Under the pieces are notes generated by a model that saw nothing but the letters and a program-made list of their open reading frames with translations, was not told where the DNA came from and made no database searches. From an uncultured virus (IMG/VR IMGVR_UViG_3300037067_003729) (taxonomy: Duplodnaviria; Heunggongvirae; Uroviricota; Caudoviricetes), in IMG/VR virus record IMGVR_UViG_3300037067_003729: a stretch of 64,000 nucleotides of DNA; one strand, 5' to 3'. Made by a program: the position numbers and the translations under genes. Within the stretch, counting starts at the first letter, position 1. Each line of letters opens with the position of its first letter. This document shows positions 25,143 to 61,479 of this stretch, piece after piece.

Positions 25143-26228
25143 ATGTATAAAATCCCACTTTCCAAACCATCCTACCTACCCTACATCGATGAAGTATTAT
25201 CTGCCACAGAAAAAGTGTTGCGTTCTGGCCATATCGCAATGGGCCCTATTATTGAGGAGTTTGAGCAGCATATAGCTGATTATTGCGGCACCAAGTATGC
25301 CATAGCTGTATCATCCGGGACAGCTGGGTTGTTCCTGTGCCTTAAGTCTATCGGCATAGGTCCGGGTGACGAGGTTATCACCACACCGTTTTCATTCATA
25401 GCCAGTTCAAACGTCATAGTCCATGTCGGCGCGACTCCTGTGTTTATAGACATAGACAGGAGTACATATAATCTAAGCGTCCCCTCATTAATTCGTACAC
25501 AGCTAAGTGATAAGGTCAAAGCTATACTGCCCGTGGATACATTCGCAAACCCGTTCGACACAAACAGGATACACGGACTACCAATCATCCTTGATTCCTG
25601 CGAGTCATTCGGCAACAAAATGGACCGTCCTTTCGACGCAGCAGTATACGCATTCTACCCAAACAAAGCTTTGACAACGGGCGAAGGCGGCATAATTGTA
25701 ACTGATAATCAGGATATAGCTGAGTACTGCCAGGCAATGCGTAACCAAGGGCGAAAAAAAGGCGATCAATGGCTTGACTCATCTATGATAGGCTGGAATT
25801 TTCGCATGACAGATTTGCAGGCTGCTATAGGGCTGGTGCAGTTTAACCATTGGGACGAGATCAAGCGTAAACGGCAGTGGGTAGCCTTACAGTATACCGC
25901 CGAACTTAGTGAATTGTTCTGTAGCGGCCTGGTAAATTGGCAGGAGTATACGACAAATGATGTATGCCCATTCGTTTTTACCATCGAAGTCCCAAATCGG
26001 GATAAAGTAATGCGGTATCTGCTTGATCACGGGATAGAGGTTAAGCCTTACTTTCCATGTATTCACCTGCAAAAACCTTACAGAGACATGGGATATCGTG
26101 AGGGTATGTTCCCGGTGGCCGAAGAGGTTGCAAGCAGGACATTAGCCCTTCCGTACTGGAGCGATATGTCGGAGGATGAGGTTGTAGAAGTATGCCGAGT
26201 TTTGAAAGATGCATTGGAGGAAACATGA
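25143..26228 (+). CDS. DegT/DnrJ/EryC1 PLP sugar aminotransferase (LegC/PseC/PglE-like)
   Basis: AVSSGTAGL, GPGDEVITTPFSFIAS, DSCES, FYPNKALTTGEGG, GWNFRMTDLQAAIG, TLALP. Confidence 0.95.
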   Translation: MYKIPLSKPSYLPYIDEVLSATEKVLRSGHIAMGPIIEEFEQHIADYCGTKYAIAVSSGTAGLFLCLKSIGIGPGDEVITTPFSFIASSNVIVHVGATPVFIDIDRSTYNLSVPSLIRTQLSDKVKAILPVDTFANPFDTNRIHGLPIILDSCESFGNKMDRPFDAAVYAFYPNKALTTGEGGIIVTDNQDIAEYCQAMRNQGRKKGDQWLDSSMIGWNFRMTDLQAAIGLVQFNHWDEIKRKRQWVALQYTAELSELFCSGLVNWQEYTTNDVCPFVFTIEVPNRDKVMRYLLDHGIEVKPYFPCIHLQKPYRDMGYREGMFPVAEEVASRTLALPYWSDMSEDEVVEVCRVLKDALEET

Positions 26229-27421
26229 AAACAATAGCTGTCATAACTACCTGTCGGGCTGATTTTGGCTACCTCTACTGGATAATGAAAGATATTCAGT
26301 CCAGCGCAAAACTATCCCTGCAAATTATCCTTCCAATCAATCATCATGAGGTCAACAATATACTGAATGAATTTGGCTGCACCTATCTTACCAGCCCGAT
26401 ATCATCAATCAAAGATTACGGACAGTTTTATTCAGACTGCCACAAAATAATGTCGGACACAAGGCCGGACATGGTTGTAGTTTTAGGAGATCGCTTTGAA
26501 GTCCATGCAGCAGCCACAGCAGCATTATTATTAAGCATTCCCATAGCGCATATACATGGCGGTGAGACTACAACCGGAGCGTTCGACAATGAGCTTCGCA
26601 ATTCAATTACCCAAATGGCTACATATCACTTTACAGCAACAAAAGATTACGCCGAAAAAGTTGGTTTAATGTTAGGTAGTAAGCCTTTAATCAACTACCT
26701 TGAAGCAAATCCGCATTTACCAAATCCATGTATTTGGGATTGGTGTGAGGCATATGATATGTGGCTATCGGTTGATGACTGGGATAAATACTATCCTAAC
26801 CAAAAAATAAACATTTACAACGTCGGCTCTTCCGGTCTTGATTGGCTTACCCGTGCAAAGTTACTTTCAAAGGACAAACTACAGCAACACGTTTCAATCA
26901 ACTTAAACCAGCCGTTTATTATGGCGTGTTTTCACCCTGTAACAAAGGAACTAAACAAAACAGGAGAATACATCAGGGAGTTAATAACGGCGCTTTATAA
27001 AAACGATGTGCAAGTACTATGGATAAAACCAAACATTGACCCTAAATATGAAATCATAAACGAATGGATTGAATATGCCTGCAAATCTTATGAATGGAAC
27101 TTAGTTGATAACCTTGACCACCTCACCTACTTATCCCTGCTACAATATGCAGAAATTATGGTGGGTAATTCATCCAGTGGCATCATTGAATCTGCATCAT
27201 TCTACTTGCCGTCTGTGACTGTTGGTAGCCGCCAGGATGGACGTATCAAACCGGATAATGTATTTTCCTGCCCGTGCGAAACAGACGCTATTTTGACCGC
27301 CATGGGCCGTGCAAGGGAATGGAATGCGACGGTAGGAAAGTGCGAGAACCCATATGGGGACGGTAAGAGTTCGGAAAGAATCGTGAAGATATTGGAGGGA
27401 ATACCATGTATGACGGTATAG
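26225..27421 (+). CDS. neuC: Hydrolysing UDP/GDP-sugar 2-epimerase (NeuC/LegG-like)
   Basis: TTCRADFG, VLGDRFE, AHIHGGE.T.GAFDN.LR..IT, FHPVT, VGNSSSGIIE, GSRQDGR, NPYGDG.SS. Confidence 0.93.
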   Translation: MKTIAVITTCRADFGYLYWIMKDIQSSAKLSLQIILPINHHEVNNILNEFGCTYLTSPISSIKDYGQFYSDCHKIMSDTRPDMVVVLGDRFEVHAAATAALLLSIPIAHIHGGETTTGAFDNELRNSITQMATYHFTATKDYAEKVGLMLGSKPLINYLEANPHLPNPCIWDWCEAYDMWLSVDDWDKYYPNQKINIYNVGSSGLDWLTRAKLLSKDKLQQHVSINLNQPFIMACFHPVTKELNKTGEYIRELITALYKNDVQVLWIKPNIDPKYEIINEWIEYACKSYEWNLVDNLDHLTYLSLLQYAEIMVGNSSSGIIESASFYLPSVTVGSRQDGRIKPDNVFSCPCETDAILTAMGRAREWNATVGKCENPYGDGKSSERIVKILEGIPCMTV

Positions 27422-27765
27422 ATTATGCACTAAAAATACGGCTAGACAGCATAAAAGAATTAGAGGGCAACGATATTGATTTATTTTTTGACAACATAAT
27501 AAGGTTGGATAATATCTTAAGCGAGATTCGTAAAGAAATTGACTCAGGAGAAGCAAGAAAACAATGGTGTAAAACATGTACGGCTGAGAAACGTGTAAGT
27601 TTAGTTAGTTTAACCGATTGCATGGTATGTGCTATATTTTCACCATTTAAACAACCACTAAAATATACCGGACCTGAAACGAAAATAGGAGATAAAAAGG
27701 CAAAAAAAGTAATGAATCTGGTGAAAAGTTTTAATTTAATCATAAAAGAAGTAGAACAAACTTGA
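27406..27765 (+). CDS. hypothetical protein (CxxC motifs)
   Basis: 119-aa ORF overlapping neuC stop. Confidence 0.55.
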   Translation: MYDGIDYALKIRLDSIKELEGNDIDLFFDNIIRLDNILSEIRKEIDSGEARKQWCKTCTAEKRVSLVSLTDCMVCAIFSPFKQPLKYTGPETKIGDKKAKKVMNLVKSFNLIIKEVEQT

Positions 27766-27784: not shown

Positions 27785-28231
27785 ATGAAAACTGAAACTT
27801 TGGAAGCCATTAAAGAAATACAGGAATGGCAAGCGGCAAACAAACCGGATGAAAAATATACACCAAAAGTAAGCATAAAAGAAGAAGCTAAACTGATGGA
27901 ACGAAAGTATATTGATCTTATCTGCTCCTTGTTAACAAACAATATCAATTCATGGGAACAGGAATGCTGGCAAAAGATAAAACTTAACATAAAAAACTAC
28001 GAAATTATAGTCTGTTATCAGGGCGATGTAGATAATTATTTTGAAGTTAATGTAAATAATTTAGGGACAACAACAAGGATATTCCTTCACAGTTTACCGC
28101 TTGGGACAAATTACCGTAAATTAGCCAAAAGATCAGTTAAATATGTAGACAATTTGCACGAACTCAAAACCTTACAGCAAGGAAATGATTTGCTTATAAA
28201 TAACTACGATGAACTGCGAGGCGTTATATGA
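27785..28231 (+). CDS. hypothetical protein
   Basis: 148-aa ORF, stop overlaps next start. Confidence 0.55.
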   Translation: MKTETLEAIKEIQEWQAANKPDEKYTPKVSIKEEAKLMERKYIDLICSLLTNNINSWEQECWQKIKLNIKNYEIIVCYQGDVDNYFEVNVNNLGTTTRIFLHSLPLGTNYRKLAKRSVKYVDNLHELKTLQQGNDLLINNYDELRGVI

Positions 28232-28929
28232 AAACTTGCATCTTTTTAACCACCCGTTACGGTTCAACTCGCCTGCCAGGCAAGCACTTACTGACCATAA
28301 ACGGAGAAACATTGACTGATATACTGATAAAACGGCTGAAACACTCCAATATACCAATAATAATGTGTACACCGGATACCCCGGAAGATAATTTGCACAT
28401 GAAAGCCATAGCCGATAGAAACAATATCGGCTTTTTCAGTGGAGAAAGGCAAAATATCATAAAAAGGCACCTTGATTGCGCTTTGAAACACGAATTAGAC
28501 TTTATCATCAATATCGACGGTGATGATCCGCTGATTTGCCCCGAAACCGTTCAATCTGTCTACTACTGCGTTCAGCAATTGAAGGAACTTTCACCGATAC
28601 GCACGGTCGGACTGCCGTTGGGACTTAACGTGATAGCTTATCCCGTAAGTAAACTGGCAGAAGTCAACTTTAACACAGATACAGGGTGGGGGGCACAGCT
28701 TTTTAAAGGACAGTACGTGGAGATACCGTTCAAATACGACTACAACTATCGCTTGACAATGGATTATGACCTAGATTTTGACGTAATTATGGCAGTTCTG
28801 ACACAATGCAAGCGAAATATGATCGTCGGAGGGATATGCAACTGGTTACTCAAGCATCCAGACATTGCAAAGTCAAATTTGTACCTGAATAAGAAGTACT
28901 GGGAAAGAATGGAGGAATTATCAAAATGA
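28228..28929 (+). CDS. Acylneuraminate cytidylyltransferase (SpsF/LegF/KdsB family)
   Basis: RYGSTRLPGKHL, IDGDDPL, RLTMDY..DF. Confidence 0.92.
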   Translation: MKTCIFLTTRYGSTRLPGKHLLTINGETLTDILIKRLKHSNIPIIMCTPDTPEDNLHMKAIADRNNIGFFSGERQNIIKRHLDCALKHELDFIINIDGDDPLICPETVQSVYYCVQQLKELSPIRTVGLPLGLNVIAYPVSKLAEVNFNTDTGWGAQLFKGQYVEIPFKYDYNYRLTMDYDLDFDVIMAVLTQCKRNMIVGGICNWLLKHPDIAKSNLYLNKKYWERMEELSK

Positions 28930-29150: not shown

Positions 29151-29461
29151 AACTGAAAACGGAATGCTTTGGCTGTGATTTTAGAATTTCAGGAATGGAT
29201 AGATTCGGCGGCGGATGTGATTTGATGGAGCAAAGCAAACTTTGTATACGTGATAGTAATTTTGCAAACAACAACTTGAAACTTTGTATAATTTGCAAAA
29301 ATATAAGCAACAGACACACACCGAATCCGCATTGCAATTTAACAGAAGTATGGTTAAAAGAGTATGTTACGGGCAGAGAATGCCTGACTTTTAAATCATG
29401 TTCTAATATAAATATAAGCGGTGATTGTCCTGATTTTGAACAAATAAAGGAGTCTGTATAA
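29147..29461 (+). CDS. Cys-rich hypothetical protein
   Basis: Multiple CxxC motifs; overlapping start/stop. Confidence 0.5.
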   Translation: MKLKTECFGCDFRISGMDRFGGGCDLMEQSKLCIRDSNFANNNLKLCIICKNISNRHTPNPHCNLTEVWLKEYVTGRECLTFKSCSNINISGDCPDFEQIKESV

Positions 29462-29985
29462 TGAAAATCACATTAGCACAGGTAAAACCCAGTAACAACT
29501 GGGAGGTCGTTGAAAATCACCCCATATTCTGGCCCGAACTTGTCACACCAACATGTATAAACAGCCTGACGGGATACGGATATGAAGAAAACCTTTCCGG
29601 ACTAAAGTTCAATACATACCGCATAGGTGATTTTGTTTATCGAAAGAGCCACCTATTCCCAGAATATGATGATGACAGGACCGCAGGGGTAAAATTACCA
29701 CACACCTACATAAATGGCATGAAAACCTATGTGGTTATTTGTTATGACCTGCGCTTCCCTGAACTGTTTGCACAAATGGAAAAGCCTGATTTGATAATTG
29801 TCCCTGCTGACTGGCCCCTTAAACGTATACACCACTGGGACGCGCTGCTGAAGGCAAGGGCTATTGAGGAAAAATGTTTTGTTGCCGGCATAAATGTGAA
29901 TGGTCACAGTGCGGTATACAACTGGAACGGGGACTGTCTGAATGAACTTGATGAAACAGAAAGGTTAATTGAGGTAGAGATATGA
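29461..29985 (+). CDS. Minimal carbon-nitrogen hydrolase (nitrilase family)
   Basis: Catalytic triad motifs WPEL, YRKSHLF, ICYDLRFPE; PADWP..R..HW..LLKARAIE. Confidence 0.9.
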   Translation: MKITLAQVKPSNNWEVVENHPIFWPELVTPTCINSLTGYGYEENLSGLKFNTYRIGDFVYRKSHLFPEYDDDRTAGVKLPHTYINGMKTYVVICYDLRFPELFAQMEKPDLIIVPADWPLKRIHHWDALLKARAIEEKCFVAGINVNGHSAVYNWNGDCLNELDETERLIEVEI

Positions 29986-30878
29986 GGTTTGGAATTATTG
30001 GACGAGGTTCAATGAGTAAGAGAAGGCAACGTTGTTTGGAAGTCTTGGGATACGATGAGTATTTCACATGGGACACAATGGATGATAGCAAATATGACGA
30101 TGTAGTTACGGTATTAAAACCCGATGCATTACTTGTATGCAGTCCTCCTTTGACAAAACAAATTTACATTGATTTAGCAAATGTGCTAAAAATTCCATGT
30201 TTTTGTGAGGCTGATATAACGGAATATACAGGAACATACTACAGTTCATCTACTATGCGTTTCCATCCAGCAATACAGAAGATAAAGGAACTCATTGGTA
30301 ATGGTACGTTAGGTAAAATCTATACCTTTACTCATCATTGCGGAAATCATATCGAGGATTGGCACCCCGGTTGTGACAAAAAAACGTATTACGCCATGAA
30401 AAAGGAAACAGGAGGTTGTAAAGAGATATTACCCTTTGAATTATCATGGTTGTCTTACTTATTCGGATCCCCGATTGACTGCACTGGATTCATTGACAAA
30501 AAACTGAACGACCCGGACATATCAGCGGATGATGTATATTCTGCGTCGGTGAAATTTGCGACAGTAACCGGCACTATGCTGGTAGATATTGTTTCAAGGC
30601 CAGCAATAAGAGAATTGCGCGTTGTTTGCGAACGTGGCTTTATTGAATGGAATTGGAATGACGATTATGTATTTATACGTGGAACAAACGAACAAAATGG
30701 CATAATTTCTTTTGACAAAGGTACGGCTGCAGAAGGGTATAACTCTAATATTTGCGAAGAAATGTATCAAAAAGAACTTGCAAACTGGATTGCAGCAATA
30801 CAGGGCAAGGAACAATATTTATTCAGCCGCGAGGACGAAAAGGCTGTTATGGAAATGTTGAGAAAGGTGGAGAGATAG
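29982..30878 (+). CDS. Gfo/Idh/MocA NAD(P)-dependent oxidoreductase
   Basis: GIIGRGSMSKRR Rossmann motif, MRFHPAI..IKE.I..G.LG, DWHP. Confidence 0.88.
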   Translation: MRFGIIGRGSMSKRRQRCLEVLGYDEYFTWDTMDDSKYDDVVTVLKPDALLVCSPPLTKQIYIDLANVLKIPCFCEADITEYTGTYYSSSTMRFHPAIQKIKELIGNGTLGKIYTFTHHCGNHIEDWHPGCDKKTYYAMKKETGGCKEILPFELSWLSYLFGSPIDCTGFIDKKLNDPDISADDVYSASVKFATVTGTMLVDIVSRPAIRELRVVCERGFIEWNWNDDYVFIRGTNEQNGIISFDKGTAAEGYNSNICEEMYQKELANWIAAIQGKEQYLFSREDEKAVMEMLRKVER

Positions 30879-31201: not shown

Positions 31202-31573
31202 ATGCCAACAAAAGAACAGATTGAAGCAATGGTAAAAACATTTAAACTGCAAGATTGGGAAATCGACGTTCAAGAAGATGAAACGATTACTGATTGTGCT
31301 CGCACTTTGCTGATTTTTAACGATTATAAAGCTTGTATCAAACTCAAAAAGCAGAATTCTGATATTGAACAAGAAAAGTCACTAATTCATGAACTGCTAC
31401 ACTTGATTTTTAGAGATGCCTACGACATTTTTGACGCGCAGTGTAAGGATGAATTTGCAAAAGAATATTGTCAAAAGCAGCATGAACGGGCAATTGAAAA
31501 GACTTCAAAAATAATCTATTCATTGTTGCACTCAGAAAGCGAGGTCACAAATGAAACATTACGCAACATATAG
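31202..31573 (+). CDS. HExxH zinc metallopeptidase-like protein
   Basis: LQDWEI...LIHELLHL...HERAIE. Confidence 0.7.
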   Translation: MPTKEQIEAMVKTFKLQDWEIDVQEDETITDCARTLLIFNDYKACIKLKKQNSDIEQEKSLIHELLHLIFRDAYDIFDAQCKDEFAKEYCQKQHERAIEKTSKIIYSLLHSESEVTNETLRNI

Positions 31574-32840
31574 TAGAAGTGATGATTGTTTTAGCAGCAA
31601 TTGCCCGCAAGTCTTCATAAAAGGATCCGGTTGTCACGTCACATCAGATGACGGCAGGGAATTCATCGATTTTGGCATGGCACTCAGAAGTGTTATTTTA
31701 GGTTACTGCAATCCTATAGTGGACGAAGCCGTAAAGAAGGCCATAGACAAAGGCGTATGCTTTACGCGGTCTAATCCGTATGAAGGGGAATTGAAAGAAC
31801 TACTAAAGTCAATTATCCCATGTGCTGAAGAGGTCAAACTTGGCAAGAATGGTTCTGATGTAACACATGCCGCCGTAAAGTTAGCTAGGGCATACACAGG
31901 TAGGAATTTAGTGCTTATTGCAGAAGAAAACCCATTTATTTCAACGGCAGACTTTTTCATTGGTACAACTCTGGTAAATGACGGTATACCGCGCGATGAA
32001 ACAGTAAGAAAATATTCCTACAACAATATGAACGTAAACGACAGGCCATATAACGCATCTGAAGCTGATTGGAACGACAATTACATTAGCCTTGAGGAAT
32101 ACGTCGGTCAACATAACATCGCCGCAATTATCCTTGACCCTTCCACTATAGACATAAACCGTGAAAAGCTTCAGTATATCCGCGATTTGTGCGATAAATA
32201 CGGCATAATCATGATACTTGATGAGGTTATATCAGGTTTCCGTTATGGAATGGGTGGTGTACAAGGATTATTCGGCGTCAAACCTGACCTTTGTACTCTT
32301 GGAAAAGCCATGGGAAATGGATATGCTGTGTCTGCTTTGTGTGGTAGAAAGGAATTATTTGACCTTGGCTTGCGGGATAAAGGAAATGTCTTTCTGTTAT
32401 CCGGTACGTATTTTTCCAACACTCCTGACATAGCTGCAGCAATTGCCTGCGTGAGAGAATTGCAGGAAGTACCTGAATATATTTGGGAAACAGGACAAGA
32501 CTTTTCCGACAGGTTAAGGGTAACAATACACAGCGCTAAAATGAGTCCTTATATGCAAATCAACGACTGGATGCCGTGTAACCCATTGATTGTATATGAA
32601 ACCTATGATGATAAATTTGCACTGTTGGAACTTAAGACCTTGTTCGACCAGGAAATGGTTAAGCAGGGTATTTTAATGCCTTACATAGCGATCAGTGCGT
32701 CGCATACTAAAAAGGAAATCCAGCAAACGGTTGACGCTGCCGAATACGCCTTAAGTGTATGCAAAAAGGCAATAGACAGTGGGAATGTAAAGGAAAGTCT
32801 ATGTGGACATTGCGAAAAACCAGTCTTCAGAAAGGTGTGA
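31551..32840 (+). CDS. Class III PLP aminotransferase (GSA-aminomutase-like, glycan-locus type)
   Basis: GREFIDFGMAL..VILGY, KNGSDVTHAAVKLARAYTGR, DEVISGFR, PDL.TLGKAMGNG, LLSGT. Confidence 0.92.
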   Translation: MKHYATYSRSDDCFSSNCPQVFIKGSGCHVTSDDGREFIDFGMALRSVILGYCNPIVDEAVKKAIDKGVCFTRSNPYEGELKELLKSIIPCAEEVKLGKNGSDVTHAAVKLARAYTGRNLVLIAEENPFISTADFFIGTTLVNDGIPRDETVRKYSYNNMNVNDRPYNASEADWNDNYISLEEYVGQHNIAAIILDPSTIDINREKLQYIRDLCDKYGIIMILDEVISGFRYGMGGVQGLFGVKPDLCTLGKAMGNGYAVSALCGRKELFDLGLRDKGNVFLLSGTYFSNTPDIAAAIACVRELQEVPEYIWETGQDFSDRLRVTIHSAKMSPYMQINDWMPCNPLIVYETYDDKFALLELKTLFDQEMVKQGILMPYIAISASHTKKEIQQTVDAAEYALSVCKKAIDSGNVKESLCGHCEKPVFRKV

Positions 32841-32841
32841 T

Positions 32842-35814: not shown

Positions 35815-37791
35815 ATGGATATTTTAAAACCGATAAAATCACTCGTTAAAGGGGTGAAAAGAAAAATGGATGAAATTAAAGATATGGATGAAATGGTCAG
35901 GGAAGCAACTGAACTAATGGACGAGTATCTTTTAGCTGACAAAGAGAAACAACCTTGGAATGAAAAGTTTGATCGTGAGGAAAAAATCTATGTCGGCGAC
36001 AGGACGTTCGGCAATACATATTCATCTGCGGCAACCGACGATGCACGTACTCCCATAAGGATATCACAGTCCATCATAGAAGCACAGATTGACCTTAACA
36101 TCCCTGAAGCCGTGTTCAAACCCATAACGGAAGATGATGAAAGTGCCGTCAAGAAACTACAGGCTGAGGCTGACTACACGATACGGAACAGTGACCTTGA
36201 TGAAGTGAATTCATCCGCTGAAAGGGTGGTTAAAAAGCACGGTATCACCTGTTATAAGGTTTTGTGGAATCCCAGCTACCAAGGTCCGGGATTCAGGGGC
36301 AGACCGGAAATAATTGAGGTTCACCCCAAAAACATTGCATGGGCGGCGGGAACTGTAGACAAAAACAAATGTCAATGCATGTATCACATTGAAAATGAGA
36401 CTTTACGAGATTGTATTAAAAAGTATGGTGATATAGCCAAAAAACTCCCTGAATACGGTTTATGCGCAGATATCAAGTATGACACCGTAGGAGACGGCAA
36501 CAGTTCAAGGGTTAACAACACCAACGACGTAAACGCGCAAGTTGATTTAATGACTCAGCAAATGAATCACCCGCTAACAAAATATGTCATTGTTGAAAAA
36601 TGGCATCTTGACGACGATGATGAACTCTGCCTGACGGCATTCAGCGATAAGTTGATTTTGCTAAAGACACCTAAATACTACCACAGACGAAAGTATGACC
36701 CGGACAAGAAAGAGTTTGAACGGGACGAACAGGGCAATGAAGTCTTTGTCGACTCTGAGACCATTGCGGATGACTATAGTGAAGAAGAAGAATACGACGA
36801 CAACGGTGAAAAAAAGAAAATCCAAATCGTCAAGATACCCAAAGGCACGCAGGTTCCCTATTACTATCCAAGGGGGCCTAAGTCAATTCCGATAGTCATA
36901 CAGAATAACATTCCGCGTTCCAAGTCGATTGTAGGCATTTCTGATATCGAAAGGACTGCAGACTTTGAACAGACCATGAAAAAAATGGTCTACAGACATG
37001 AAGAAAAGATTCTCAAAGGAACGACCAAGATCCTGTACGACAAGCGGATAGAAGAAGAAGCAGCGGCATTGCTTGACAACGATAATCTTACCGTAATAGG
37101 TGTGCAGGATGTAAATAATTTTAAAGTTGTTGATTTTAAAGACAACGGACGTGAAGCACTGGAATTCTATACATTCATATCTGATCAGCTTCAGTACATG
37201 ATAGGTATTACCTCAGTCTGGCAGGGCATCAACAAAGGTGAGTCTCAGTCCGGGAAAATGACGGATTCGCTTATAAATCAAACGGCGGAGAAGATCGGCA
37301 TAAAGGCCAATGAAAAGAACATTGCCTATAAAAGAATTTATCAACTGTTATGCGATCATATCCTTTGTTTCTCAGACGGTGACAGACCGTACAGAATAGA
37401 TGCAAAACTGAAACCCGAATATGGAAAGTTCAACAAATTTGACATGGTGAAAATGACTGAAAATGGTGCGGTTTGGGCTGGATGGGACATTGAAATCTCT
37501 GCCGAACCGGCTATGAACAAAAACAGGAGTGTTTTGATTGAACAAACTAAAGAACTGGCTAGCGGTGGATTCCTTGCACCGACTGAACAAAACCTACTGG
37601 TCTGGAAACTCTTAGTCAAGATGAATTTCCCAAACTCAGCATCGATTTTACAGACTCTTCAGGAACAGTTTGACCAGCAGCAAATGATGCAGCAGGAACA
37701 GATCAAAGCACAGGCCGATAAGGTAAACAGCCCTGAGGCCCAGACGTTGAATACAATCGCTCAGAAAATAGGAGGCGGCAATGCTATCTAA
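35815..37791 (+). CDS. Portal protein (P22/podovirus-like)
   Basis: 658 aa after terL; helical, acidic, C-terminal Q-rich barrel (QQQMMQQEQ). Confidence 0.82.
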   Translation: MDILKPIKSLVKGVKRKMDEIKDMDEMVREATELMDEYLLADKEKQPWNEKFDREEKIYVGDRTFGNTYSSAATDDARTPIRISQSIIEAQIDLNIPEAVFKPITEDDESAVKKLQAEADYTIRNSDLDEVNSSAERVVKKHGITCYKVLWNPSYQGPGFRGRPEIIEVHPKNIAWAAGTVDKNKCQCMYHIENETLRDCIKKYGDIAKKLPEYGLCADIKYDTVGDGNSSRVNNTNDVNAQVDLMTQQMNHPLTKYVIVEKWHLDDDDELCLTAFSDKLILLKTPKYYHRRKYDPDKKEFERDEQGNEVFVDSETIADDYSEEEEYDDNGEKKKIQIVKIPKGTQVPYYYPRGPKSIPIVIQNNIPRSKSIVGISDIERTADFEQTMKKMVYRHEEKILKGTTKILYDKRIEEEAAALLDNDNLTVIGVQDVNNFKVVDFKDNGREALEFYTFISDQLQYMIGITSVWQGINKGESQSGKMTDSLINQTAEKIGIKANEKNIAYKRIYQLLCDHILCFSDGDRPYRIDAKLKPEYGKFNKFDMVKMTENGAVWAGWDIEISAEPAMNKNRSVLIEQTKELASGGFLAPTEQNLLVWKLLVKMNFPNSASILQTLQEQFDQQQMMQQEQIKAQADKVNSPEAQTLNTIAQKIGGGNAI

Positions 37792-38605
37792 AAACATTCT
37801 AATTATAGGCGCGAGCGGGACATTGGGGACTGCACTGATAACTGAATTAGTCAAACAGGATGTCACAATAAGGGCCTATTCAAGAAATGAATACAGGCTT
37901 TTTTTATTGCGTGAAAAGTTCAAGGAATATGAATCCAAGATGAGGTATTTGATTGGTGACATATGCGATTTGGAACGCCTTAACATGGCCATGACTAACG
38001 CAGACGTCGTTATAAATTGCGCTGCAATGAAAAGGGTAGAAATGTGCGACGAGAATCCCTTTGCCTGTCTTAATACGAACGTGGTCGGCGTACAAAAAGC
38101 CCTTGAATGTGCCGTAAAGAACAACATTGAAACTTTCATACAAATATCAACCGATAAAGCTGTCCTGCCTGTTAATATCTATGGGCATTCAAAAGCAATG
38201 TCGGAGTATTTGGTTTTGGACGCTGTGAATTGGTGCGGTAAGGCTAAAACAAAATTTATCGTAGTCAGGAGTGGAAATATTCTCGGTTCAAGCGGTTCGG
38301 TTCTCGAAATATGGCAAAAGCAAAAGGAACAAGGCTTGCCTTTGACCGTGTCTGACTTAAACGCGACTCGATACGGTGCATCAAAGGAGAGTATATCCAA
38401 GGCTATCTTGGACATTGCAGAATACTCTGTGCAGAGTGGCTTAAACGGCCTTGTGGTACTTGATATGAAAGAATATTCAATCAAGGATTTATTGGCTGAA
38501 TTTAGCGACTGTGACGTTATACATACAGGCTTGAAACCGTTTGAAAAACTCCATGAATTATTATACCGGGATGGAGAAATTTTTACGAAATGGAAGGTGA
38601 TTTAA
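37781..38605 (+). CDS. NDP-GlcNAc 4,6-dehydratase (PseB/FlaA1/CapD Polysacc_synt_2 family)
   Basis: IGASGTLG, YSRNE, IGDICD, AAMKRV..C..NP....NTNVVG, ISTDKA..PVN.YG.SK, VRSGNILGSSGSV. Confidence 0.93.
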   Translation: MLSKNILIIGASGTLGTALITELVKQDVTIRAYSRNEYRLFLLREKFKEYESKMRYLIGDICDLERLNMAMTNADVVINCAAMKRVEMCDENPFACLNTNVVGVQKALECAVKNNIETFIQISTDKAVLPVNIYGHSKAMSEYLVLDAVNWCGKAKTKFIVVRSGNILGSSGSVLEIWQKQKEQGLPLTVSDLNATRYGASKESISKAILDIAEYSVQSGLNGLVVLDMKEYSIKDLLAEFSDCDVIHTGLKPFEKLHELLYRDGEIFTKWKVI

Positions 38606-45114: not shown

Positions 45115-46908
45115 ATGTTGCAGGAATACCCGATAACGGCGTTTATAGGTGGGCTTAATGTGACAAAACCGCCGACTGACATAGAGGACGATCAAAGTCC
45201 GGACTGCGAAAATGTAGTCAACAACGAACTATACGGAATAAATTCAAGGTACGGGTACTCAAAGTATTACGCGACCGCACTCGCAACGGCAAATGTAAAT
45301 TCATTATTTGTCTATAACTCATTCAGTTCATCAGACTTTATTTACCCGGTTGGAACCTCGCTAAAGATTGACCTTGCTGGTTCGGCCTCGACCATATATT
45401 CAGGCATGGTTTCCGGCAAGTCAAGGGCATTTGAAATGAACGGGTATATATACATGCTTGACGGTTCCGGATATATAGAGTACAACGGCGCGACAGCTTC
45501 CACAGTGTCCGGATACATACCGACTTATTATGCGGACAAAAACCCTGACGGAACCGGAGGGGGACAGATTGACGAACTTAACTATATCCAATCCGGATTC
45601 ACCGAGACATTCTCAGGAAACGCGACGGCAACAACGTTCTACATGTCATTTGGAAGCCTTACGACGGGTGACAACGTAGTTATAGTAAATAACGCAACTT
45701 TAACCTCTGGAGGGGCTACAGCAGGGTTCACGGTCAACTATGCAAGCGGGTATTTTAATCTGACCACTGCGGCGACTTCCGGAGTCGGAAACGTAGAGAT
45801 AACCGTACATAAACCTGTTCTTTCTGCGACGTGTATAACCAACTGCACTTTTTGCGAGACATACGGAGAAGGAAACGACACCAACGTTTATTTAAGTGGA
45901 AATCCGTCTTTCCCTGCAAGGGTGTTTTGGTCGGACGTCTTGGATCCGACTTATTGCCCTGCGACCTCATACGCGGACGTAGGCGTAAAGAATGACAAAA
46001 TGATGGGATTTATTAAAACGGGAAACACGCTTCAGCTATGGAAATACCGGTCGGTTCACGGTTTAGTAGGTGCGCCGCCAAACAACTCCATTACTGAAAT
46101 GTACGACGGTGAGGGACTAGTCGCGACTGACACTTTGAAACTGGTAGACGGTATTCCAACGGGATTGAGTCAAAGGGGAGTCGTTCAGTTAAAGACAGAG
46201 GGAAACGGTTACAAGCTTGACCTTATCAGCGAGGACATAAACGGATTCACAGGGATACGCGACGGACTTATGACGGAATCCGAAACAAGCCGGGCGAACG
46301 CCTTTGCAATTGTGCACGATAAGAAATACTGGCTTCATGTGAACGATCAAATTTTTATCCTTCAGCAAAACCTTATCCATCAGGGAAACGGCAGGATTGT
46401 TTATCCATGGCTTAAATGGACACTTGCGAATGAACCGACGTGTTTCAATGTCAAGGATGGATACATGTATTTCGGCGGCGCGGGGAATCTCTATAAACTT
46501 GACCCCTCCGCTGCGAGTGATGACGGAACAGCCATTGACTCATATTGGTATTCAAAGAAAATGAACCCCGGACAGGGTTATGACTTGATTAAACTATTCA
46601 CGCATTTATATTTTGAATTCAGGACAATGTTTGGCAATACCACTATAGCAATCACTGTATACATAAACGACATTGCTGGTACGTCGGCGACCGCGCCCTT
46701 TGAGTTAGCTGGCGTGTGGATACCTAACGCCTTTAACCCGAATGCGTTCGCTCCGAATGTAGCAACTTACTCCAATTTCCCCAAAAGAGTACCAATAAAT
46801 CTGAAGGGAAAGTATTTCCAGTATAAGGTGAGAAGCAACACCCTAAATCAGGGATTTACCTTGTTGAACAGCAAACTATACTATGCCATAGACCGGAGAG
46901 TGATATAA
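45115..46908 (+). CDS. Tail nozzle/hub protein (P22 gp10 / tubular B-like)
   Basis: F.GGLN..P..I.DDQSP.CENV N-terminus; beta-propeller-like; DDGTAI..YW.SK; KGKYFQYK C-terminus. Confidence 0.68.
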   Translation: MLQEYPITAFIGGLNVTKPPTDIEDDQSPDCENVVNNELYGINSRYGYSKYYATALATANVNSLFVYNSFSSSDFIYPVGTSLKIDLAGSASTIYSGMVSGKSRAFEMNGYIYMLDGSGYIEYNGATASTVSGYIPTYYADKNPDGTGGGQIDELNYIQSGFTETFSGNATATTFYMSFGSLTTGDNVVIVNNATLTSGGATAGFTVNYASGYFNLTTAATSGVGNVEITVHKPVLSATCITNCTFCETYGEGNDTNVYLSGNPSFPARVFWSDVLDPTYCPATSYADVGVKNDKMMGFIKTGNTLQLWKYRSVHGLVGAPPNNSITEMYDGEGLVATDTLKLVDGIPTGLSQRGVVQLKTEGNGYKLDLISEDINGFTGIRDGLMTESETSRANAFAIVHDKKYWLHVNDQIFILQQNLIHQGNGRIVYPWLKWTLANEPTCFNVKDGYMYFGGAGNLYKLDPSAASDDGTAIDSYWYSKKMNPGQGYDLIKLFTHLYFEFRTMFGNTTIAITVYINDIAGTSATAPFELAGVWIPNAFNPNAFAPNVATYSNFPKRVPINLKGKYFQYKVRSNTLNQGFTLLNSKLYYAIDRRVI

Positions 46909-47784
46909 ATGGTTCAAAGAACAGACGATTACCTGAGACCGAGGGGGTACTACGACAATAAAGGCAATTTGTTAAAGGTTGGATTTGATACGGTCAATAT
47001 GCTTTCGGGGTTAGCGGTGACAGCAGGGCAAATCAATTACGCAACAAGTTATCCCGCCTCATGCGCTTATGCTGCGTCAGCAAGTACTTTAGGCGGACTG
47101 GATCCTTTGCAATACGCAAGAAGATATGCTGCAATCGTATCAGTTGTTAACTCATATGTAAATATTGCTAAAATAAATGGAACTGGCCTTGCTTCGTCCG
47201 TACGCTTATTAGTAGCAGGTACAGGAAACAGCGTAGTGGTAAATGTCATTTCAGACATTTTAGTGAATCATTTTCAGGATATCCTTGTCCGTAGTACAAG
47301 CGGAGAATATACTCAATTAACCATCAAAATAACAAGTGATACTAACTGTAGTTATAATATTAGCATTAAAACCACAAGCGTAAATGCTGCCAACTTGTAT
47401 TTCACTATCTTAGCCGACCCAATTAATACAGTTACATTATATACCAATAATCCCGCACTAGATTATACCACCATTACCCACGAACACACTACACAATCCG
47501 GTTCAACCAATATCACTGCCACAGGTGGAAATGCAGCGGCTATGTATGTGGAAAATAATGTTGTATGGCACGGTGGCAATTTGAAAAATGGTAGCACGGT
47601 AGCAAGCAACGACATGGTATTAACTCACGGTCTATCATCTGGTTTATATGGTCAAGTTTCTCCGCAAACAAGCGGAATAATAGCAGGGTGCGTTGTTACA
47701 CAAACAGGGATACAGTTTTCTATAACTAACATCTCAGGTGTTTCAACAAGCGCATCGGTTTATTGGACAGTATACGGAGATTAA
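46909..47784 (+). CDS. Tail fibre-like protein (Ser/Thr-rich)
   Basis: ASTLGG, VWHGGNL and THGL fibre-type motifs. Confidence 0.6.
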   Translation: MVQRTDDYLRPRGYYDNKGNLLKVGFDTVNMLSGLAVTAGQINYATSYPASCAYAASASTLGGLDPLQYARRYAAIVSVVNSYVNIAKINGTGLASSVRLLVAGTGNSVVVNVISDILVNHFQDILVRSTSGEYTQLTIKITSDTNCSYNISIKTTSVNAANLYFTILADPINTVTLYTNNPALDYTTITHEHTTQSGSTNITATGGNAAAMYVENNVVWHGGNLKNGSTVASNDMVLTHGLSSGLYGQVSPQTSGIIAGCVVTQTGIQFSITNISGVSTSASVYWTVYGD

Positions 47785-47796
47785 AGGGGTGATTTT

Positions 47797-48312
47797 ATGA
47801 TTAGTGCAAGCGTAGTATCGACAATAACATTAACATATTCCGGTTCAAATCCGTGGACCGTGTTTGATTCGTCAAATTTAGCAACAGGTGGTGCGTTGCA
47901 AGCGAATTGGAATGATGTTGTAAGCCAAATAGACGGGCTTTACAAGCCTTTACTGAACAGTTCCGTAAATGAAATGAACTTTATCGAGGGCGCAAGCGGT
48001 GCAAGATACGTTGGCATGAGCGGAATTGATGGAATAGGCACGGGTTCAACGGTGTTTTCTGCCTTGTATGCGATCAGCACAGCCGTATCGGCTATAAACA
48101 TTTCGGCGGCTTACGCAGGTTCGGCGGGTACGTTAAGCGGTTACGGAAACATCATGACCACTACAGGCAGCCAGGTAATGACCAATAAACTTGCAGCACA
48201 GAATCATAGTTCGTATACGTCACCATATTTGAGAAATGCAATATATTCCACAACGGCAGCAACAGGCGGGGCATGTAATAGCGGCGACACATGGTTGATG
48301 TATACGCCATAG
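47797..48312 (+). CDS. Tail/fibre protein (Ser/Thr-rich)
   Basis: C-terminal LRN...ST....GDTWL.Y motif typical of fibre connectors. Confidence 0.55.
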   Translation: MISASVVSTITLTYSGSNPWTVFDSSNLATGGALQANWNDVVSQIDGLYKPLLNSSVNEMNFIEGASGARYVGMSGIDGIGTGSTVFSALYAISTAVSAINISAAYAGSAGTLSGYGNIMTTTGSQVMTNKLAAQNHSSYTSPYLRNAIYSTTAATGGACNSGDTWLMYTP

Positions 48313-48321
48313 GAGGGCATT

Positions 48322-49275
48322 ATGAGCATTCAAGTGAATATAGATGGTGCCATAAAGAATGTGGTAAATGTACAAGTGAATATAGATGGTGCTATAAAAC
48401 AAGTAGCTAAAGTATTTGCCAATATAGACGGGGTTATAAAGACCGTTTGGGATTATGTCGGCGCGTGGGCAGCGGGTGGCAACCTTAACACCGCCCGCGG
48501 TGGTTTAGCTGGAGCAGGAACACAGACGGCGGGGCTAAGTTTCGGAGGTAATAGCGGTGGACTTAGTGTTGTAACCGAGGAATACGACGGCGTTGCATGG
48601 GCGGCTGGCGGAAACCTTAATACTGCTAGAGAATATTTAGCCGGAGTTGGCACACAAACAGCAGGACTTTCGTTCGGGGGACAGACTAGTTCATATTCCA
48701 ATATCACTGAAGAATATGATGGTGCTACGTGGACGGCAGGAGGAAATTTAAGTACGGCTAGATATCAATTAGGCGGCTGTGGCGTTCAAACAGCAGGACT
48801 TTCGTTCGGGGGTATAGTAGGTGTCGCCATTTATAGTAATGTTACTGAAGAATACGACGGTTCTACATGGACAGTAGGAGGAAACCTTAATACAGCACGT
48901 GGTGGATTGGGCGGTTGCGGCACACAGACAGCAGGATTGAGTTTTGGAGGCAATGGCGGCGGGTATAGTGCTGTCACCGAGGAATATGATGGTTCTACGT
49001 GGGCGGCAGGAGGCAACCTCAATACTGCACGTAGCAGTTTAGCTGGAGCAGGTTCACAAACAGCAGGACTTTCGTTCGGGGGCGGACTTACCAGTATTCC
49101 AATAGGGTATCATGCTGTAGGTATCACTGAGGAATACGATGGTTCTGTTTGGATAGTAGGCGGCAGTCTTAATACTGCAAGGGTTGGTTTAGCCGGTTGT
49201 GGCGTTCAAACAGCAGGGTTATCTTTCGGGGGTAGTGATCCGTCTAATGTAACTGAGGAATATACAAAAATTTAG
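48322..49275 (+). CDS. Kelch-repeat six-bladed beta-propeller, probable receptor-binding protein
   Basis: Three NIDG.IK N-terminal repeats; six W..GG.L.TAR..L.G.G.QTAGLSFGG...TEEY repeats. Confidence 0.85.
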   Translation: MSIQVNIDGAIKNVVNVQVNIDGAIKQVAKVFANIDGVIKTVWDYVGAWAAGGNLNTARGGLAGAGTQTAGLSFGGNSGGLSVVTEEYDGVAWAAGGNLNTAREYLAGVGTQTAGLSFGGQTSSYSNITEEYDGATWTAGGNLSTARYQLGGCGVQTAGLSFGGIVGVAIYSNVTEEYDGSTWTVGGNLNTARGGLGGCGTQTAGLSFGGNGGGYSAVTEEYDGSTWAAGGNLNTARSSLAGAGSQTAGLSFGGGLTSIPIGYHAVGITEEYDGSVWIVGGSLNTARVGLAGCGVQTAGLSFGGSDPSNVTEEYTKI

Positions 49276-50908: not shown

Positions 50909-51472
50909 ATGATTTTAATAGGTGCAGGACAAAATAGTTTAGATGTCCTTTCTTTTATACCTCACCAAGAGGTATTTTTTATTGATGATTTTAAGGTTGG
51001 GAAATTTGAAGGATATAAGATTTTAGGAACCGTTGACGATCTGTGTCAAGGGCGAATACCTATACGATACCCTGTTTATAATGCTGTGGGAAGCGTAGGC
51101 GACAACACTACAAGAAATCGAATATATGAGAAACTGAAAAAGGCTGGCCTTCGGGTACAGCCTTTAATATTTCCATCACATATTTGCCATAACGTGCAAA
51201 TCGGTGAAAACGTTGTTATCGGATTGGGTTCTCAGATACACCATGATTGCATGATAGGTGAATCGTGCATTCTCAGTCCGAGAGTTACTTTATGCGGGGC
51301 CGTGACACTCTCTGATAACGTTTTCCTTGGAGTGGGTGCAATAATCATTCAGGGTATCACGGTGGGTAAAAATGCCATTGTAGGCGCAGGCAGTTTAGTT
51401 ATAAGGGACGTTCCGGACAATGTTACCGTTGTGGGAAATCCAGCAAGGATTATTGAGAAAACTGAGGGGTGA
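50909..51472 (+). CDS. Sugar O/N-acetyltransferase (NeuD/PglD/LegH family)
   Basis: IGAG, FIDD, VG..GDN..R N-terminal domain; HHD catalytic His; hexapeptide left-handed beta-helix; VVGNPAR. Confidence 0.93.
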   Translation: MILIGAGQNSLDVLSFIPHQEVFFIDDFKVGKFEGYKILGTVDDLCQGRIPIRYPVYNAVGSVGDNTTRNRIYEKLKKAGLRVQPLIFPSHICHNVQIGENVVIGLGSQIHHDCMIGESCILSPRVTLCGAVTLSDNVFLGVGAIIIQGITVGKNAIVGAGSLVIRDVPDNVTVVGNPARIIEKTEG

Positions 51473-58967: not shown

Positions 58968-59026
58968 TTTAAATTTACTTAATACGAGGCACTCGAAAGG
59001 GTGGCTTAATTTTTGAAAGGAATCAT

Positions 59027-59743
59027 ATGGAGATAATCGCAGAAATCGGCCTGAATCACATGGGTGATCTTAACAAGGCACTTGACATGGTAAAAATAGC
59101 AAAGGAGTGCGGCACGGACATTGTAAAATTTCAATTCTACTATACAGATATTTTGTGTGTTAACCGGAATTGCTTTGATTCATTCAAACTGCTGGATAAA
59201 ATACGTCTACGGCCGCAATGGATTCCAATACTCGCCGACGAATGCAAACGGCTGAATATCGAGTTTTTATGTACATGTTTTGATAAGTTTAGCGCAGAGG
59301 AAATAAACCCGTTCGTTGAGAGATTCAAGATAGCAAGCCCGGAAGCAACGAACATTAATTTCATAAAACAAGTTGCAGGATTCGGGAAACCGCTTATTAT
59401 TTCAACCGGCAAAATAGACGACGATCAGATCAAAGACATTCTCAATGCGGTTGATGTTCCTGTTACACTGCTTTACTGTGTCTCAAAATATCCGTCACAG
59501 CCAAGCGATTACAAACTGTCTGAGATCAAACGGCTGAAGAAAAAATTTCATGTTCCGGTTGGGTTATCGTGTCATTGCGCCGGAATTAAGAATGCGCTTG
59601 ACGCGGTTGACATGGGCGCGGACATACTGGAGAAACATTTCAAAGTTGACGAAAAATGCGTCGACGCTGCCGTATCGTTATTACCAGCAGATTTTACTAA
59701 AATGTGCGAAATTATAAGGAGGAACAATGGAAAATGGAATTGA
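59027..59743 (+). CDS. neuB: Nonulosonic acid synthase (NeuB/LegI/PseI), no C-terminal SAF domain
   Basis: IIAEIGLNHMGD, VKFQ, FKIASPE, KPLIISTG, LYCVSKYP, VGLSCH, ILEKHF, D..VSL.P. Confidence 0.95.
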   Translation: MEIIAEIGLNHMGDLNKALDMVKIAKECGTDIVKFQFYYTDILCVNRNCFDSFKLLDKIRLRPQWIPILADECKRLNIEFLCTCFDKFSAEEINPFVERFKIASPEATNINFIKQVAGFGKPLIISTGKIDDDQIKDILNAVDVPVTLLYCVSKYPSQPSDYKLSEIKRLKKKFHVPVGLSCHCAGIKNALDAVDMGADILEKHFKVDEKCVDAAVSLLPADFTKMCEIIRRNNGKWN

Positions 59744-59874
59744 TGTAATTTTTCAGTACATTACCTTTAACCCGGTGGAGATAAACGGGAAACAGACCTT
59801 TGACAATATGTTTATTGTGCTTGATGCTACCGACAAAATCGGGGCCGGCATGGTGTACGCGCAGGAGGTACAGA

Positions 59875-61479
59875 ATGTTTGAAAGGAACTGTAAGCTTTT
59901 AAGTGAGTTTCAGTCGGAAGCATTTAAAAAGATTCAAACCCCTGAAACCACATTGATATTTACGGAACAAGTCTTGTTCGGATTGAATGAAAATCAAGCA
60001 GTTGACAATTTGGTGATAAATTCAGATGATAAAATGCTGACTGTCGGAACTTCAGACAATGAAAGTTGGCTGCAAAACGTCAATCCTGACATGCATACCA
60101 TTATTGTGTACGGACTTGGATTGGGAAACCACATAGAGTCACTAATAAAGAAATATCCGGACAAAAAAATAATCGTCATCGAACCGGATAAGAGACTGTT
60201 TTACCATGCTATCCAGATACGAGACTTTGAATTCATCGTAAAAAACTGCACTATTTGGCTGGATGAACCTATTGACCTTGTCAAGGCGAAGATACATGAA
60301 ATGATAACCCATCCATTGGCAAGAGGAATCATGCTGTTGCCGTTTTATGCGAACGTCTACCAGGATTATTTTAACCTTTTGCTGAACAGTATAAAGCAAA
60401 TAATCAACGATTATGCGGTAATGGTGAATACTAAGTGGTGTCTTGTGGACAAGTGGTATGCCAACCGGATAATCAACGCCCGTAAACCCTCATACAGCGG
60501 AAAGGCTTTGATAGACGCACATAAAGGATTGCCGGGTATCATTGTCGGGGCGGGGCCGAGTCTGCAGACACAATTAGAAAAATTAAGGGAGATTCAAGGA
60601 AAGGCCGTTGTGATCGCCGCGTCAACCGCAATGGAAATTTTGCACTCTCACGGCATAAGACCAACTTACATGATCGCAATAGACCAAGACCCCATTACGT
60701 CAGGCGGGTTACATGAAAACCTCGACTCTGACGTCCCTTTGATCTTCGACACGCAGATAGCGCAAAATTCACTGAATTACACTGGCCCCAAGATACAGGT
60801 ACAACTTAATGTCAATCGATACACAACCGTTGAACTGCCTATATTTGAGTCTGGTCCCTCGGTGGCAAATGTTGCCCTTGATGTTTTACATAAAATGGGG
60901 TGTAGCCCGATTCTTATAGTAGGAATGGACATGTCTTATACAGACAACAAATTATACTGCGACGGGACAAAGTTCAATCAAGACATTCAAGAAACCAACT
61001 TATTACAAATGATCAACAATAAAGGTGAGATGTGTTTTACGGAACCGTCGTTTGTATCAATGCGAAACTGGTATGAAGATTACGTGAACCGTGTGAAACT
61101 GGAAGTCTACAATTGCACTGAGAGGGGATTGGTAATCAAGTCTATCCCGAATAAAGTTTTGGACGAATTTACTTTTGACAAAGAGGTCATCATGCCTGAA
61201 TTTGAATTAATAGATGGCGCAAAGGATGATTACAAGACTGAGTTATTGGAAATAAAGGACTTTATTGAAAAGAACAGATCTGTCAACCCTGCGTTTCAAA
61301 AGTGCAAAGCGTGGATTCTGATAGACGAATATGTTCAGCCTGACATTTATATTGCGGAAATCCGAAGTGAAGGACGCATAAAGAGGGGAATGGATATCAA
61401 AGAATCCGTCAAGATGTTTCAAGAACAGCGAATTAATCTTATTTTAACCGCTGTGGAGAAATTACTTAATTTATTTTAA
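59875..61479 (+). CDS. Maf (motility-associated factor, MAF_flag10/DUF115) nonulosonate glycosyltransferase
   Basis: IVYGLGLGNH..IIVIEPD N-terminal domain; IIVGAGPSL, IRP.YMIAID, GPSVAN, MGCSPILIVGMDMSY, YNCTE.GL.I. Confidence 0.88.
   Translation: MFERNCKLLSEFQSEAFKKIQTPETTLIFTEQVLFGLNENQAVDNLVINSDDKMLTVGTSDNESWLQNVNPDMHTIIVYGLGLGNHIESLIKKYPDKKIIVIEPDKRLFYHAIQIRDFEFIVKNCTIWLDEPIDLVKAKIHEMITHPLARGIMLLPFYANVYQDYFNLLLNSIKQIINDYAVMVNTKWCLVDKWYANRIINARKPSYSGKALIDAHKGLPGIIVGAGPSLQTQLEKLREIQGKAVVIAASTAMEILHSHGIRPTYMIAIDQDPITSGGLHENLDSDVPLIFDTQIAQNSLNYTGPKIQVQLNVNRYTTVELPIFESGPSVANVALDVLHKMGCSPILIVGMDMSYTDNKLYCDGTKFNQDIQETNLLQMINNKGEMCFTEPSFVSMRNWYEDYVNRVKLEVYNCTERGLVIKSIPNKVLDEFTFDKEVIMPEFELIDGAKDDYKTELLEIKDFIEKNRSVNPAFQKCKAWILIDEYVQPDIYIAEIRSEGRIKRGMDIKESVKMFQEQRINLILTAVEKLLNLF

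Follow-up and report, generated by a model that had tools for sequence, protein, structure and literature searches.

A podophage family with a nonulosonic acid pathway and a Maf-type transferase among its virion genes: a candidate virion glycosylation system

Maf proteins O-glycosylate flagellin with pseudaminic or legionaminic acid, as described for Maf-1, Maf-2 and the small protein GlfM of Shewanella oneidensis (10.1101/2023.12.03.569772), for Clostridium (PMC13317340) and for the Maf of Magnetospirillum (PDB 5mu5). Among phages, virion glycosylation is known from mycobacteriophages (Freeman et al. 2023, as cited in PMC12619734 and PMC12582341), and EpaA and EpaB of an Acinetobacter prophage epimerise a nonulosonate of the host (PMC12053666). 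Here we analysed 64,000 nucleotides of DNA from an uncultured virus of the Caudoviricetes (IMG/VR record IMGVR_UViG_3300037067_003729), hereafter the window, in which positions 25143 to 61479 hold genes for a complete nonulosonic acid pathway and a Maf-family transferase, interspersed with virion genes. A first-pass annotation had read them as a candidate system for decorating the phage particle. Our results favour, with moderate confidence, the reading that virion proteins are O-glycosylated late, with a nonulosonate that the phage makes itself and that probably carries an extra amine. No description of a phage system combining a nonulosonate pathway with a Maf was found in the open-access literature.

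Nine enzyme genes among the virion genes

All seven open reading frames (ORFs) of the first-pass annotation proved real and intact, lie on the + strand at the coordinates given here and score above their Pfam cut-offs, the domain scans of NeuC and Maf having used longer frames, from 26192 and 59800. In pathway order they encode a short PseB/Pen-like UDP-GlcNAc 4,6-dehydratase (step 1; 37781..38605; PF02719, Polysacc_synt_2, 208 bits; STDK..YxxxK); a DegT-family pyridoxal phosphate (PLP) aminotransferase for C4 amination (step 2; 25143..26228; PF01041, 311 bits); a NeuD/PglD hexapeptide N-acetyltransferase (step 3; 50909..51472; PglD_N and Hexapep); a NeuC/LegG-type hydrolysing 2-epimerase (step 4; 26225..27421; Epimerase_2, 204 bits); a SAF-less NeuB nonulosonate synthase (step 5; 59027..59743; PF03102, 179 bits); a cytidylyltransferase for CMP activation (28228..28929; PF02348, CTP_transf_3, 43 bits; in six family records); and a predicted Maf-family nonulosonate protein O-glycosyltransferase (59875..61479). 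Overlooked until now were, on the same strand, a Gfo/Idh/MocA oxidoreductase (29982..30878; PF22725, 41 bits; also in the related genomes G002, G006, G007, G008 and G009) and a class III PLP aminotransferase (31551..32840; PF00202, 117 bits), both conserved as well as the seven, together with an accessory carbon-nitrogen hydrolase (29461..29985; PF00795, 52 bits), which occurs in the window, G002 and contig L244 and was not found in G006-G008, and a conserved 51-aa ORF that overlaps neuB and maf. The genes lie at four places, as annotated: in the interval between terS (22560-23102) and terL (33420-35150); at the stop codon of the P22-like portal gene (35815-37791), which the dehydratase gene overlaps by 11 nt; 4 nt before the LysM gene, in the case of neuD; and, for neuB and maf, between a gene for a 1768-aa protein and the holin gene (holin and C39 endolysin, 61515-62476). 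Judging by the overlaps, these genes would be co-translated with virion genes.

The view that this is an integrated phage function and not a host island was borne out by the relatives. The same nine genes occupy the same slots in all four near-complete ones (G002, 70.5 kb; G006, 71.8 kb; G007, 59.2 kb, its maf interrupted by the contig end; G008, 56.6 kb; terL 44-97% identical): degT, neuC and the genes for the cytidylyltransferase, oxidoreductase and class III aminotransferase precede terL, the dehydratase gene follows the portal gene, neuD precedes the LysM gene, and neuB-maf follows the large gene. Compared with G002, the ratio of non-synonymous to synonymous substitution rates (dN/dS) was 0.04-0.22 for the sugar genes, with 0.06 for maf and 0.04 for the 51-aa ORF. 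Synteny and purifying selection thus rule out a captured host island. When co-occurrence with terL and portal and the intactness of the genes were checked in the relatives, the genes were present in matching positions with their motifs kept. Across the window, G002, G006, G007 and G008, the YPNK motif of the DegT protein (presumably the PLP-lysine motif), GDR(F/Y)E and GNSSSG of NeuC and Q(I/L)HHD of NeuD were kept in 5/5 genomes; DE(V/I/M)I and GK of the class III aminotransferase were kept in 6/6. We assume catalytic roles for these conserved motifs.

A capsid-anchored search, which made no use of the sugar genes, returned 28 loci, 25 of them at 47% identity or above. Sequence upstream of the scaffold gene is available for 21 of the 25, and in 20 of these it includes the dehydratase gene, a count that contains near-duplicates and one locus probably from the phage of the window itself. 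The one locus without it, G009, is rearranged but still carries neuB, maf, the small ORF, a GNAT gene and another three of the enzymes, with neuB-maf after the lysis genes. Its GNAT gene (L022:10695-11186) stands between neuB and maf, and NeuD was not found in that fragment. In every family locus having downstream sequence, maf accompanies neuB. Among 36 more distant terL loci, each seen over at most 21 kb, one had any sugar-gene match, a NeuD-like ORF, and a search of 50,697 GenBank phage records for cultured phages returned no Maf match and three weak NeuB matches (29%). Judged from these comparisons, the enzyme set is part of the core genes of a Bacillota podophage family, and the pathway, itself real and conserved, is probably functional.

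Transcription signals were also searched. No sigma70-like promoter (at least 10/12) was found before neuB in 12 loci, nor before neuD or degT in five loci each, and promoter-like sites in 22001-42000 were at chance level (53 versus 54.1). A stem-loop with a T-rich tail (58986..59007, + strand) lies directly before the neuB ribosome-binding site and recurs in 10 of 12 loci; compensatory changes affect five of its nine predicted pairs in nine sequences chosen for showing the hairpin, and an Rfam search gave no match. It may be a partial terminator damping read-through, or an mRNA-stabilising hairpin. From the placement of the sugar genes we infer that they would be expressed late.

Three further features of these intervals were recorded. 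A RinA-like regulator, probably a late-gene activator, is encoded at 32803-33389, directly before terL, and is followed by a terminator-like hairpin. Between a 101-aa ORF and degT, four 20-nt direct repeats (24837-25015; 85-100% identical; spacing 93, 44 and 22) look iteron- or operator-like. The maf-holin interval (61480-61590) is hairpin-forming, and inspection by eye showed inverted repeats in the corresponding interval of G002, G005, G006 and G008.

Stereochemistry and proposed extra amination of the sugar

The pathway had been assigned to CMP-legionaminic acid in the LegB-C-H-G-I-F order, and this assignment could not be upheld: the dehydratase scored 199 bits to PseB versus 49 to LegB and has a Tyr-type triad. 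Pen and PseB structures ranked above PglF, and the non-inverting LegB/PglF type was not matched. In a quick tree the phage dehydratases formed one long-branch clade outside the Tyr-type cellular clade, with unresolved placement. The DegT protein scored 232 bits to PseC versus 197 to LegC; for both proteins all of these scores (for PseB, TIGR03589) lie under the curated cut-offs. The accompanying argument had been that NeuC in place of PseG indicates the legionaminic branch. NeuC reached 314 bits to NCBIfam TIGR03568 against a curated cut-off of 236, with 5xvs and 5zlr as its top PDB matches, and neither PseG hydrolase nor PseH GNAT was matched among 69 window proteins (Pfam) or 28 (NCBIfam); within the family a GNAT is present in G009 alone. 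A legionaminic route fits because NeuC passes its cut-off and PseG was not found, whereas the dehydratase is PseB-like and not LegB-like.

This combination of a Tyr triad with NeuC is unusual, since among 17 cellular neuB loci with a comparable dehydratase, a Met triad occurred in 8 of the 9 with NeuC and a Tyr triad in 7 of the 8 without it. Given the stereochemical outcomes of the two reactions, if the dehydratase inverts and the hydrolase then epimerises at C2, the product would be acinetaminic acid, the C5 epimer of pseudaminic acid. SpsM of Bacillus subtilis has a PseB-like predicted fold, yet feeds legionaminic acid (PMC7439481), a precedent by which sequence cannot decide stereochemistry. 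We give a legionaminic-type nonulosonate a near-even chance, hold an acinetaminic-type one possible but doubtful, and consider any other stereochemistry unlikely.

The oxidoreductase and class III aminotransferase accompany the cytidylyltransferase even in the rearranged G009. No PDB relative of the Gfo/Idh/MocA protein was found; the aminotransferase scored 373 bits to PRK06209, under its cut-off. We propose that the former oxidises a sugar hydroxyl and that the latter carries out a second amination of the sugar. Oxidation followed by transamination is the simplest reading of the pair, and the product is probably an extra-aminated nonulosonate; alternatively, the pair could make an acyl substituent. 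An 8-amino nonulosonate has been reported from Flexibacter maritimus (PMC3210612), and no literature linking oxidoreductase-aminotransferase genes to such a sugar was found.

The Maf transferase and candidate acceptors

Both domains of the transferase, Maf_flag10_N (37 bits) and MptE-like/DUF115 (121 bits), scored above cut-off, and PDB 5mu5 was its best match by sequence (E 1.9e-8) and by fold (Foldseek E 2.4e-16; model pLDDT 73.6). D270 and D352 are invariant in 12/12 sequences and align with acidic residues of 5mu5; in the S. oneidensis Maf, D247 and D261 are essential (10.1101/2023.12.03.569772). Residues 1-443 align with cellular Mafs in a profile alignment. Beyond them lies a shortened helical domain of 95 aa, for which no alignment to the 178-aa C-terminal part of cellular Mafs was obtained (HHalign probability 1.4%) and which is possibly a remote homologue with a deletion. 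The acceptor is bound by the C-terminal domain in S. oneidensis Maf-1, and in Shewanella either this domain or GlfM selects it (10.1101/2023.12.03.569772). The Maf group comprises 33 proteins at 37-100% identity, and its nearest named cellular relatives are Mafs of Bacillota, at about 25-32%. In a quick tree, most rows of which were labelled phage by sequence similarity, the Mafs of the phage clade formed one long-branch group.

The conserved 51-aa ORF (59727..59882, + strand), a candidate accessory factor, lies directly before maf in all cases, including G009, where the GNAT gene separates it from neuB. Its family is represented by 10 small proteins (41-56 aa), no fusion with it was convincing, and the ORF had no Pfam or Atlas match. 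A copy of the Maf N-terminus was rejected for want of a profile match, and GlfM, a four-helix bundle of about 89 aa, because of the size and the upstream position of the ORF. From this constant adjacency the 51-aa protein would be a Maf cofactor.

Candidate acceptors were sought by comparing the Ser+Thr content of family orthologues with that of related Bacillota phages and prophages without sugar genes in the sequence seen. The probable head-tail adaptor (44197..45099, + strand; 24% identity to Pagevirus gp12) has 18.8% Ser+Thr in the family (17.0-21.0, n=12) versus 12.0% in controls (7.2-15.7, n=8), and the ranges are disjoint. Some 109 family-only adaptor columns have 24.6% Ser+Thr, and the shift is also present in shared columns, contig L249 being excluded from the controls of this column comparison. 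Its predicted structure (pLDDT 50, no fold match at E<=0.001) was not used. For the probable tail nozzle (45115..46908, + strand; 29% identity to a Pagevirus virion protein) the values were 17.8% (16.2-20.4, n=11) versus 13.9% (12.4-15.1, n=6), again disjoint, with Lys+Arg at 7.0 versus 11.1. The probable decoration and major capsid proteins (40430..41831, + strand; capsid 40872-41831; PHROG major head matches) were less marked, the capsid reaching 16.0 versus 13.3, a modest shift with overlapping ranges. There was no shift in terL (11.6 versus 11.2), portal (9.3 versus 10.0) or scaffold (11.2 versus 10.2). Counts of conserved Ser/Thr columns were left unused, the family being more closely related than the controls, and L220-L222 were dropped as negative controls for having glycosyltransferase or nucleotide-sugar genes of their own (L220 and L221 Pfam-scanned, L222 by eye). 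Further candidate acceptors, on the + strand, are a Ser/Thr/Ala repeat protein with almost no charged residues, encoded behind the capsid gene (41889..42353; 24% Ser+Thr; about 118-320 aa in relatives) and three charge-poor, probable fibre or tail-tip proteins (46909..49275; 17-26% Ser+Thr). The Ser/Thr-rich outer virion proteins and the changed Maf C-terminus are indirect support for the virion as the target.

Maf might instead act on internal or ejected phage proteins, such as the LysM protein or the 1768-aa protein, or on an intracellular host protein. The LysM protein, whose gene neuD abuts, has 18.9% Ser+Thr and a Thr-rich N-terminus, and neuB-maf follows the gene for the 1768-aa protein in nearly all loci seen. 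The compositional shift is, however, clearest in the adaptor and nozzle orthologues, and neuB-maf need not adjoin the large gene, since in G009 it lies after the lysis genes. We regard such targets as quite improbable.

Several other loci in the virion region were recorded. In L249, a terL relative among the controls, a 268-aa ORF just after the capsid gene (L249:12142-12948) resembles by eye a small sialyltransferase or Maf-like enzyme and sits beside a 29% Ser+Thr ORF; it had no Pfam or Maf-profile match, and the L249 adaptor has the highest Ser+Thr among the controls. L220, L221 and L222 (capsid 27%) carry GT4/GT2 glycosyltransferases, methyltransferases and epimerases after the capsid gene, beside small ORFs of 39-57% Ser+Thr, and are candidates for a separate virion glycosylation system. 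L215:7145-8578 holds three tandem decoration-like paralogues and an 874-aa Ser/Thr-rich repeat protein. In the window, a variable slot among the virion genes (42896-44122) encodes a polysaccharide-deacetylase domain, with homologues at 25-29% in G007 and L201, and its product is probably a receptor-binding or tail appendage protein. At 48322-49967 a glycine-rich repeat protein is followed by a 227-aa charged helical protein, a pair kept in G002 and G005 and possibly a fibre and its chaperone.

Host, rival readings and known systems

The window is most of one temperate podophage genome. Two sequencing runs contain the DNA, labelled as landfill and groundwater metagenome, and may be where it came from. 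An integrase (976-2100) is encoded beside an att core that equals the 3' part of tRNA-Leu(TAA) (875-936, + strand), and repressor, antirepressor and DnaB genes were found by domain and PHROG searches. The exact att sequence matched no genome; a relaxed pattern returned five genome contigs, all Bacillota or Clostridia metagenome-assembled genomes (MAGs), each match being a full tRNA-Leu. Relatives of terL at 33-46% identity are mostly from Clostridia, Bacilli and other bins accounting for a few, and the closest cultured phages by virion protein are Bacillus Pagevirus podophages. Because these three lines agree, the host is probably a member of the Bacillota. Contigs L026, L027, L223-L225 and L240-L245 of the phage family sit in MAGs labelled Babeliales, Nanoarchaeia or Paceibacterota; this is probably mis-binning, which would leave their proteins wrongly labelled cellular.

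Several observations weigh against virion glycosylation. As the family is one lineage, its compositional shift amounts to one evolutionary contrast; the controls span a GC content of 0.28-0.67, and most are known over 21 kb or less. The decoration protein is not enriched (19.8 versus 17-26% Ser/Thr in hand-picked controls), and Pagevirus tail proteins also reach 19-22% Ser+Thr. Terminator-like sites flank the first gene block, between terS and degT and before terL, so that, given also the hairpin before neuB, the sugar genes need not share one late transcript. At 238 aa, NeuB has no C-terminal SAF domain, the domain that in Neisseria meningitidis NeuB supplies an active-site Arg, and NeuD of G005 is reduced to its C-terminal 54 aa. 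Finally, described Maf acceptors are flagellins, and a flagellin is encoded in 5/5 of the att-matched genomes.

The shortened NeuB and dehydratase and the truncated NeuD of G005 would also suit a decaying relic. The short NeuB is, however, a trait of a discrete clade of 46 database proteins (223-256 aa, 50-92% identity; next matches at 40% or less). Its TIM-barrel motifs are invariant, as are E6, H11, K34, Q36, K101, S104, E106, S126, S181, H183, E202, H204 and D213, and PDB 6ncs is a 290-aa NeuB homologue. A pseudogene or truncation was rejected because the 46 proteins share the short form with these motifs intact, and purifying selection acts on every gene of the system. Phage glycosyltransferases can also modify DNA (PMC12619734), but sequence and fold identify this transferase as a Maf, and its gene is far from the replication genes. 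A relic or a role in DNA-base modification is thus very improbable.

The flagellin evidence bears on a different possibility, that the pathway re-decorates flagellin, pili or the S-layer of the host, by lysogenic conversion or during infection, and blocks superinfection by glycan-dependent phages. The literature on Maf acceptors concerns flagellins (10.1101/2023.12.03.569772), the phage is temperate, and EpaAB (PMC12053666) are a case of prophage enzymes acting on a nonulosonate of the host to alter it. Two of the five att-matched genomes encode a Maf, one of which (a 35% match) is sister to the phage group in the quick tree. A self-contained conversion cassette would look otherwise, however: the genes are split over four slots of the packaging and virion region, overlap their neighbours and lack consensus promoters. 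Moreover, the C-terminal part of Maf has become unlike that of cellular Mafs, outer virion proteins alone are enriched in Ser/Thr, and no flagellin gene occurs in the 4.1 kb seen around the closest cellular Maf. We therefore consider re-decoration of the host surface unlikely. The sugar might also serve the host spore surface or another host glycan, with Maf incidental, given the likely Bacillota host and the sps genes of B. subtilis, which make legionaminic acid for the spore crust (PMC7439481). Against this, Maf is among the most constrained genes and keeps company with neuB in every family locus that has downstream sequence, and we see hardly any likelihood in a sugar made for the spore surface or another host glycan.

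Under the favoured reading, virion glycosylation, the phage would draw on host UDP-GlcNAc during lytic growth and process it by dehydration, amination, N-acetylation and hydrolysing 2-epimerisation; condensation with phosphoenolpyruvate (PEP) and activation as the CMP form would then complete a 5,7-diacetamido nonulosonate. The extra pair, oxidoreductase and class III aminotransferase, would swap one further hydroxyl, by analogy that at C8, for an amine. Maf, aided by the 51-aa protein, would then transfer the sugar in the cytoplasm to Ser/Thr of outer virion proteins, the acceptors being the adaptor insertion, nozzle, fibres and possibly the capsid. The benefit might be a hydrophilic shield that lowers non-specific adsorption, degradation or recognition. 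In favour of this reading, the phage encodes its own donor-sugar synthesis even though 3/5 of the att-matched genomes encode a full NeuB. A bolder version is tentative and, taken as a whole, rather unlikely: nine enzymes of the podophage family would make a third-amine nonulosonate of unusual stereochemistry, a flagellin Maf, retargeted and joined by a new 51-aa cofactor, would coat the particles with it, and the outer virion proteins would have gained matching Ser/Thr acceptor surfaces.

If virion glycosylation holds true, these phages produce a sialic-acid-like coat of their own rather than taking sugars from the host, and virion glycosylation would extend past mycobacteriophages to the chemistry of flagella and capsules. 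To our knowledge no Maf acceptor other than flagellin has been known, and the phage case would be the first. The SAF-less NeuB and short dehydratase would add compact enzymes to the pathway, and the extra pair a gene-level lead for an amino-nonulosonate.

In summary, the system shares with the flagellin Maf systems a full donor pathway, a Maf-fold transferase and a small protein encoded next to maf. It differs in that its genes are scattered among virion genes, no flagellin occurs in the window and the Maf C-terminus is shortened and unalignable; GlfM, at 89 aa, is generally encoded downstream of maf, whereas the small phage ORF lies upstream. From CMP-legionaminic pathways (LegBCHGIF of Campylobacter jejuni, the UDP-linked PglFED-NeuC-NeuB-NeuA route and B. 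subtilis Sps, PMC7439481) it departs by its Tyr-type PseB/Pen-like dehydratase, SAF-less NeuB and additional oxidoreductase and class III aminotransferase, while the NeuC-type epimerase, hexapeptide acetyltransferase, NeuB and cytidylyltransferase are common to both. Like EpaA and EpaB, which are cytidylyltransferase-like and oxidoreductase enzymes (PMC12053666), it comprises phage-encoded nonulosonate enzymes, but EpaAB comprise two genes, whose products alter a capsule sugar made by the host, whereas the window phage has a complete pathway and a protein transferase of its own. The Pagevirus phages Page, Palmer and Pony of Bacillus megaterium share the podophage layout and a nozzle at 29% identity, in genomes of 40 kb with no sugar genes annotated. 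As in mycobacteriophages, where phage-encoded glycosyltransferases are proposed to coat capsid and tail proteins as a shield, glycosyltransferase genes are conserved among the virion genes, as expected of a phage virion glycosylation system; here the transferase is a Maf, a whole pathway supplies an acidic nine-carbon donor, and the genes suggest the virion glycan.

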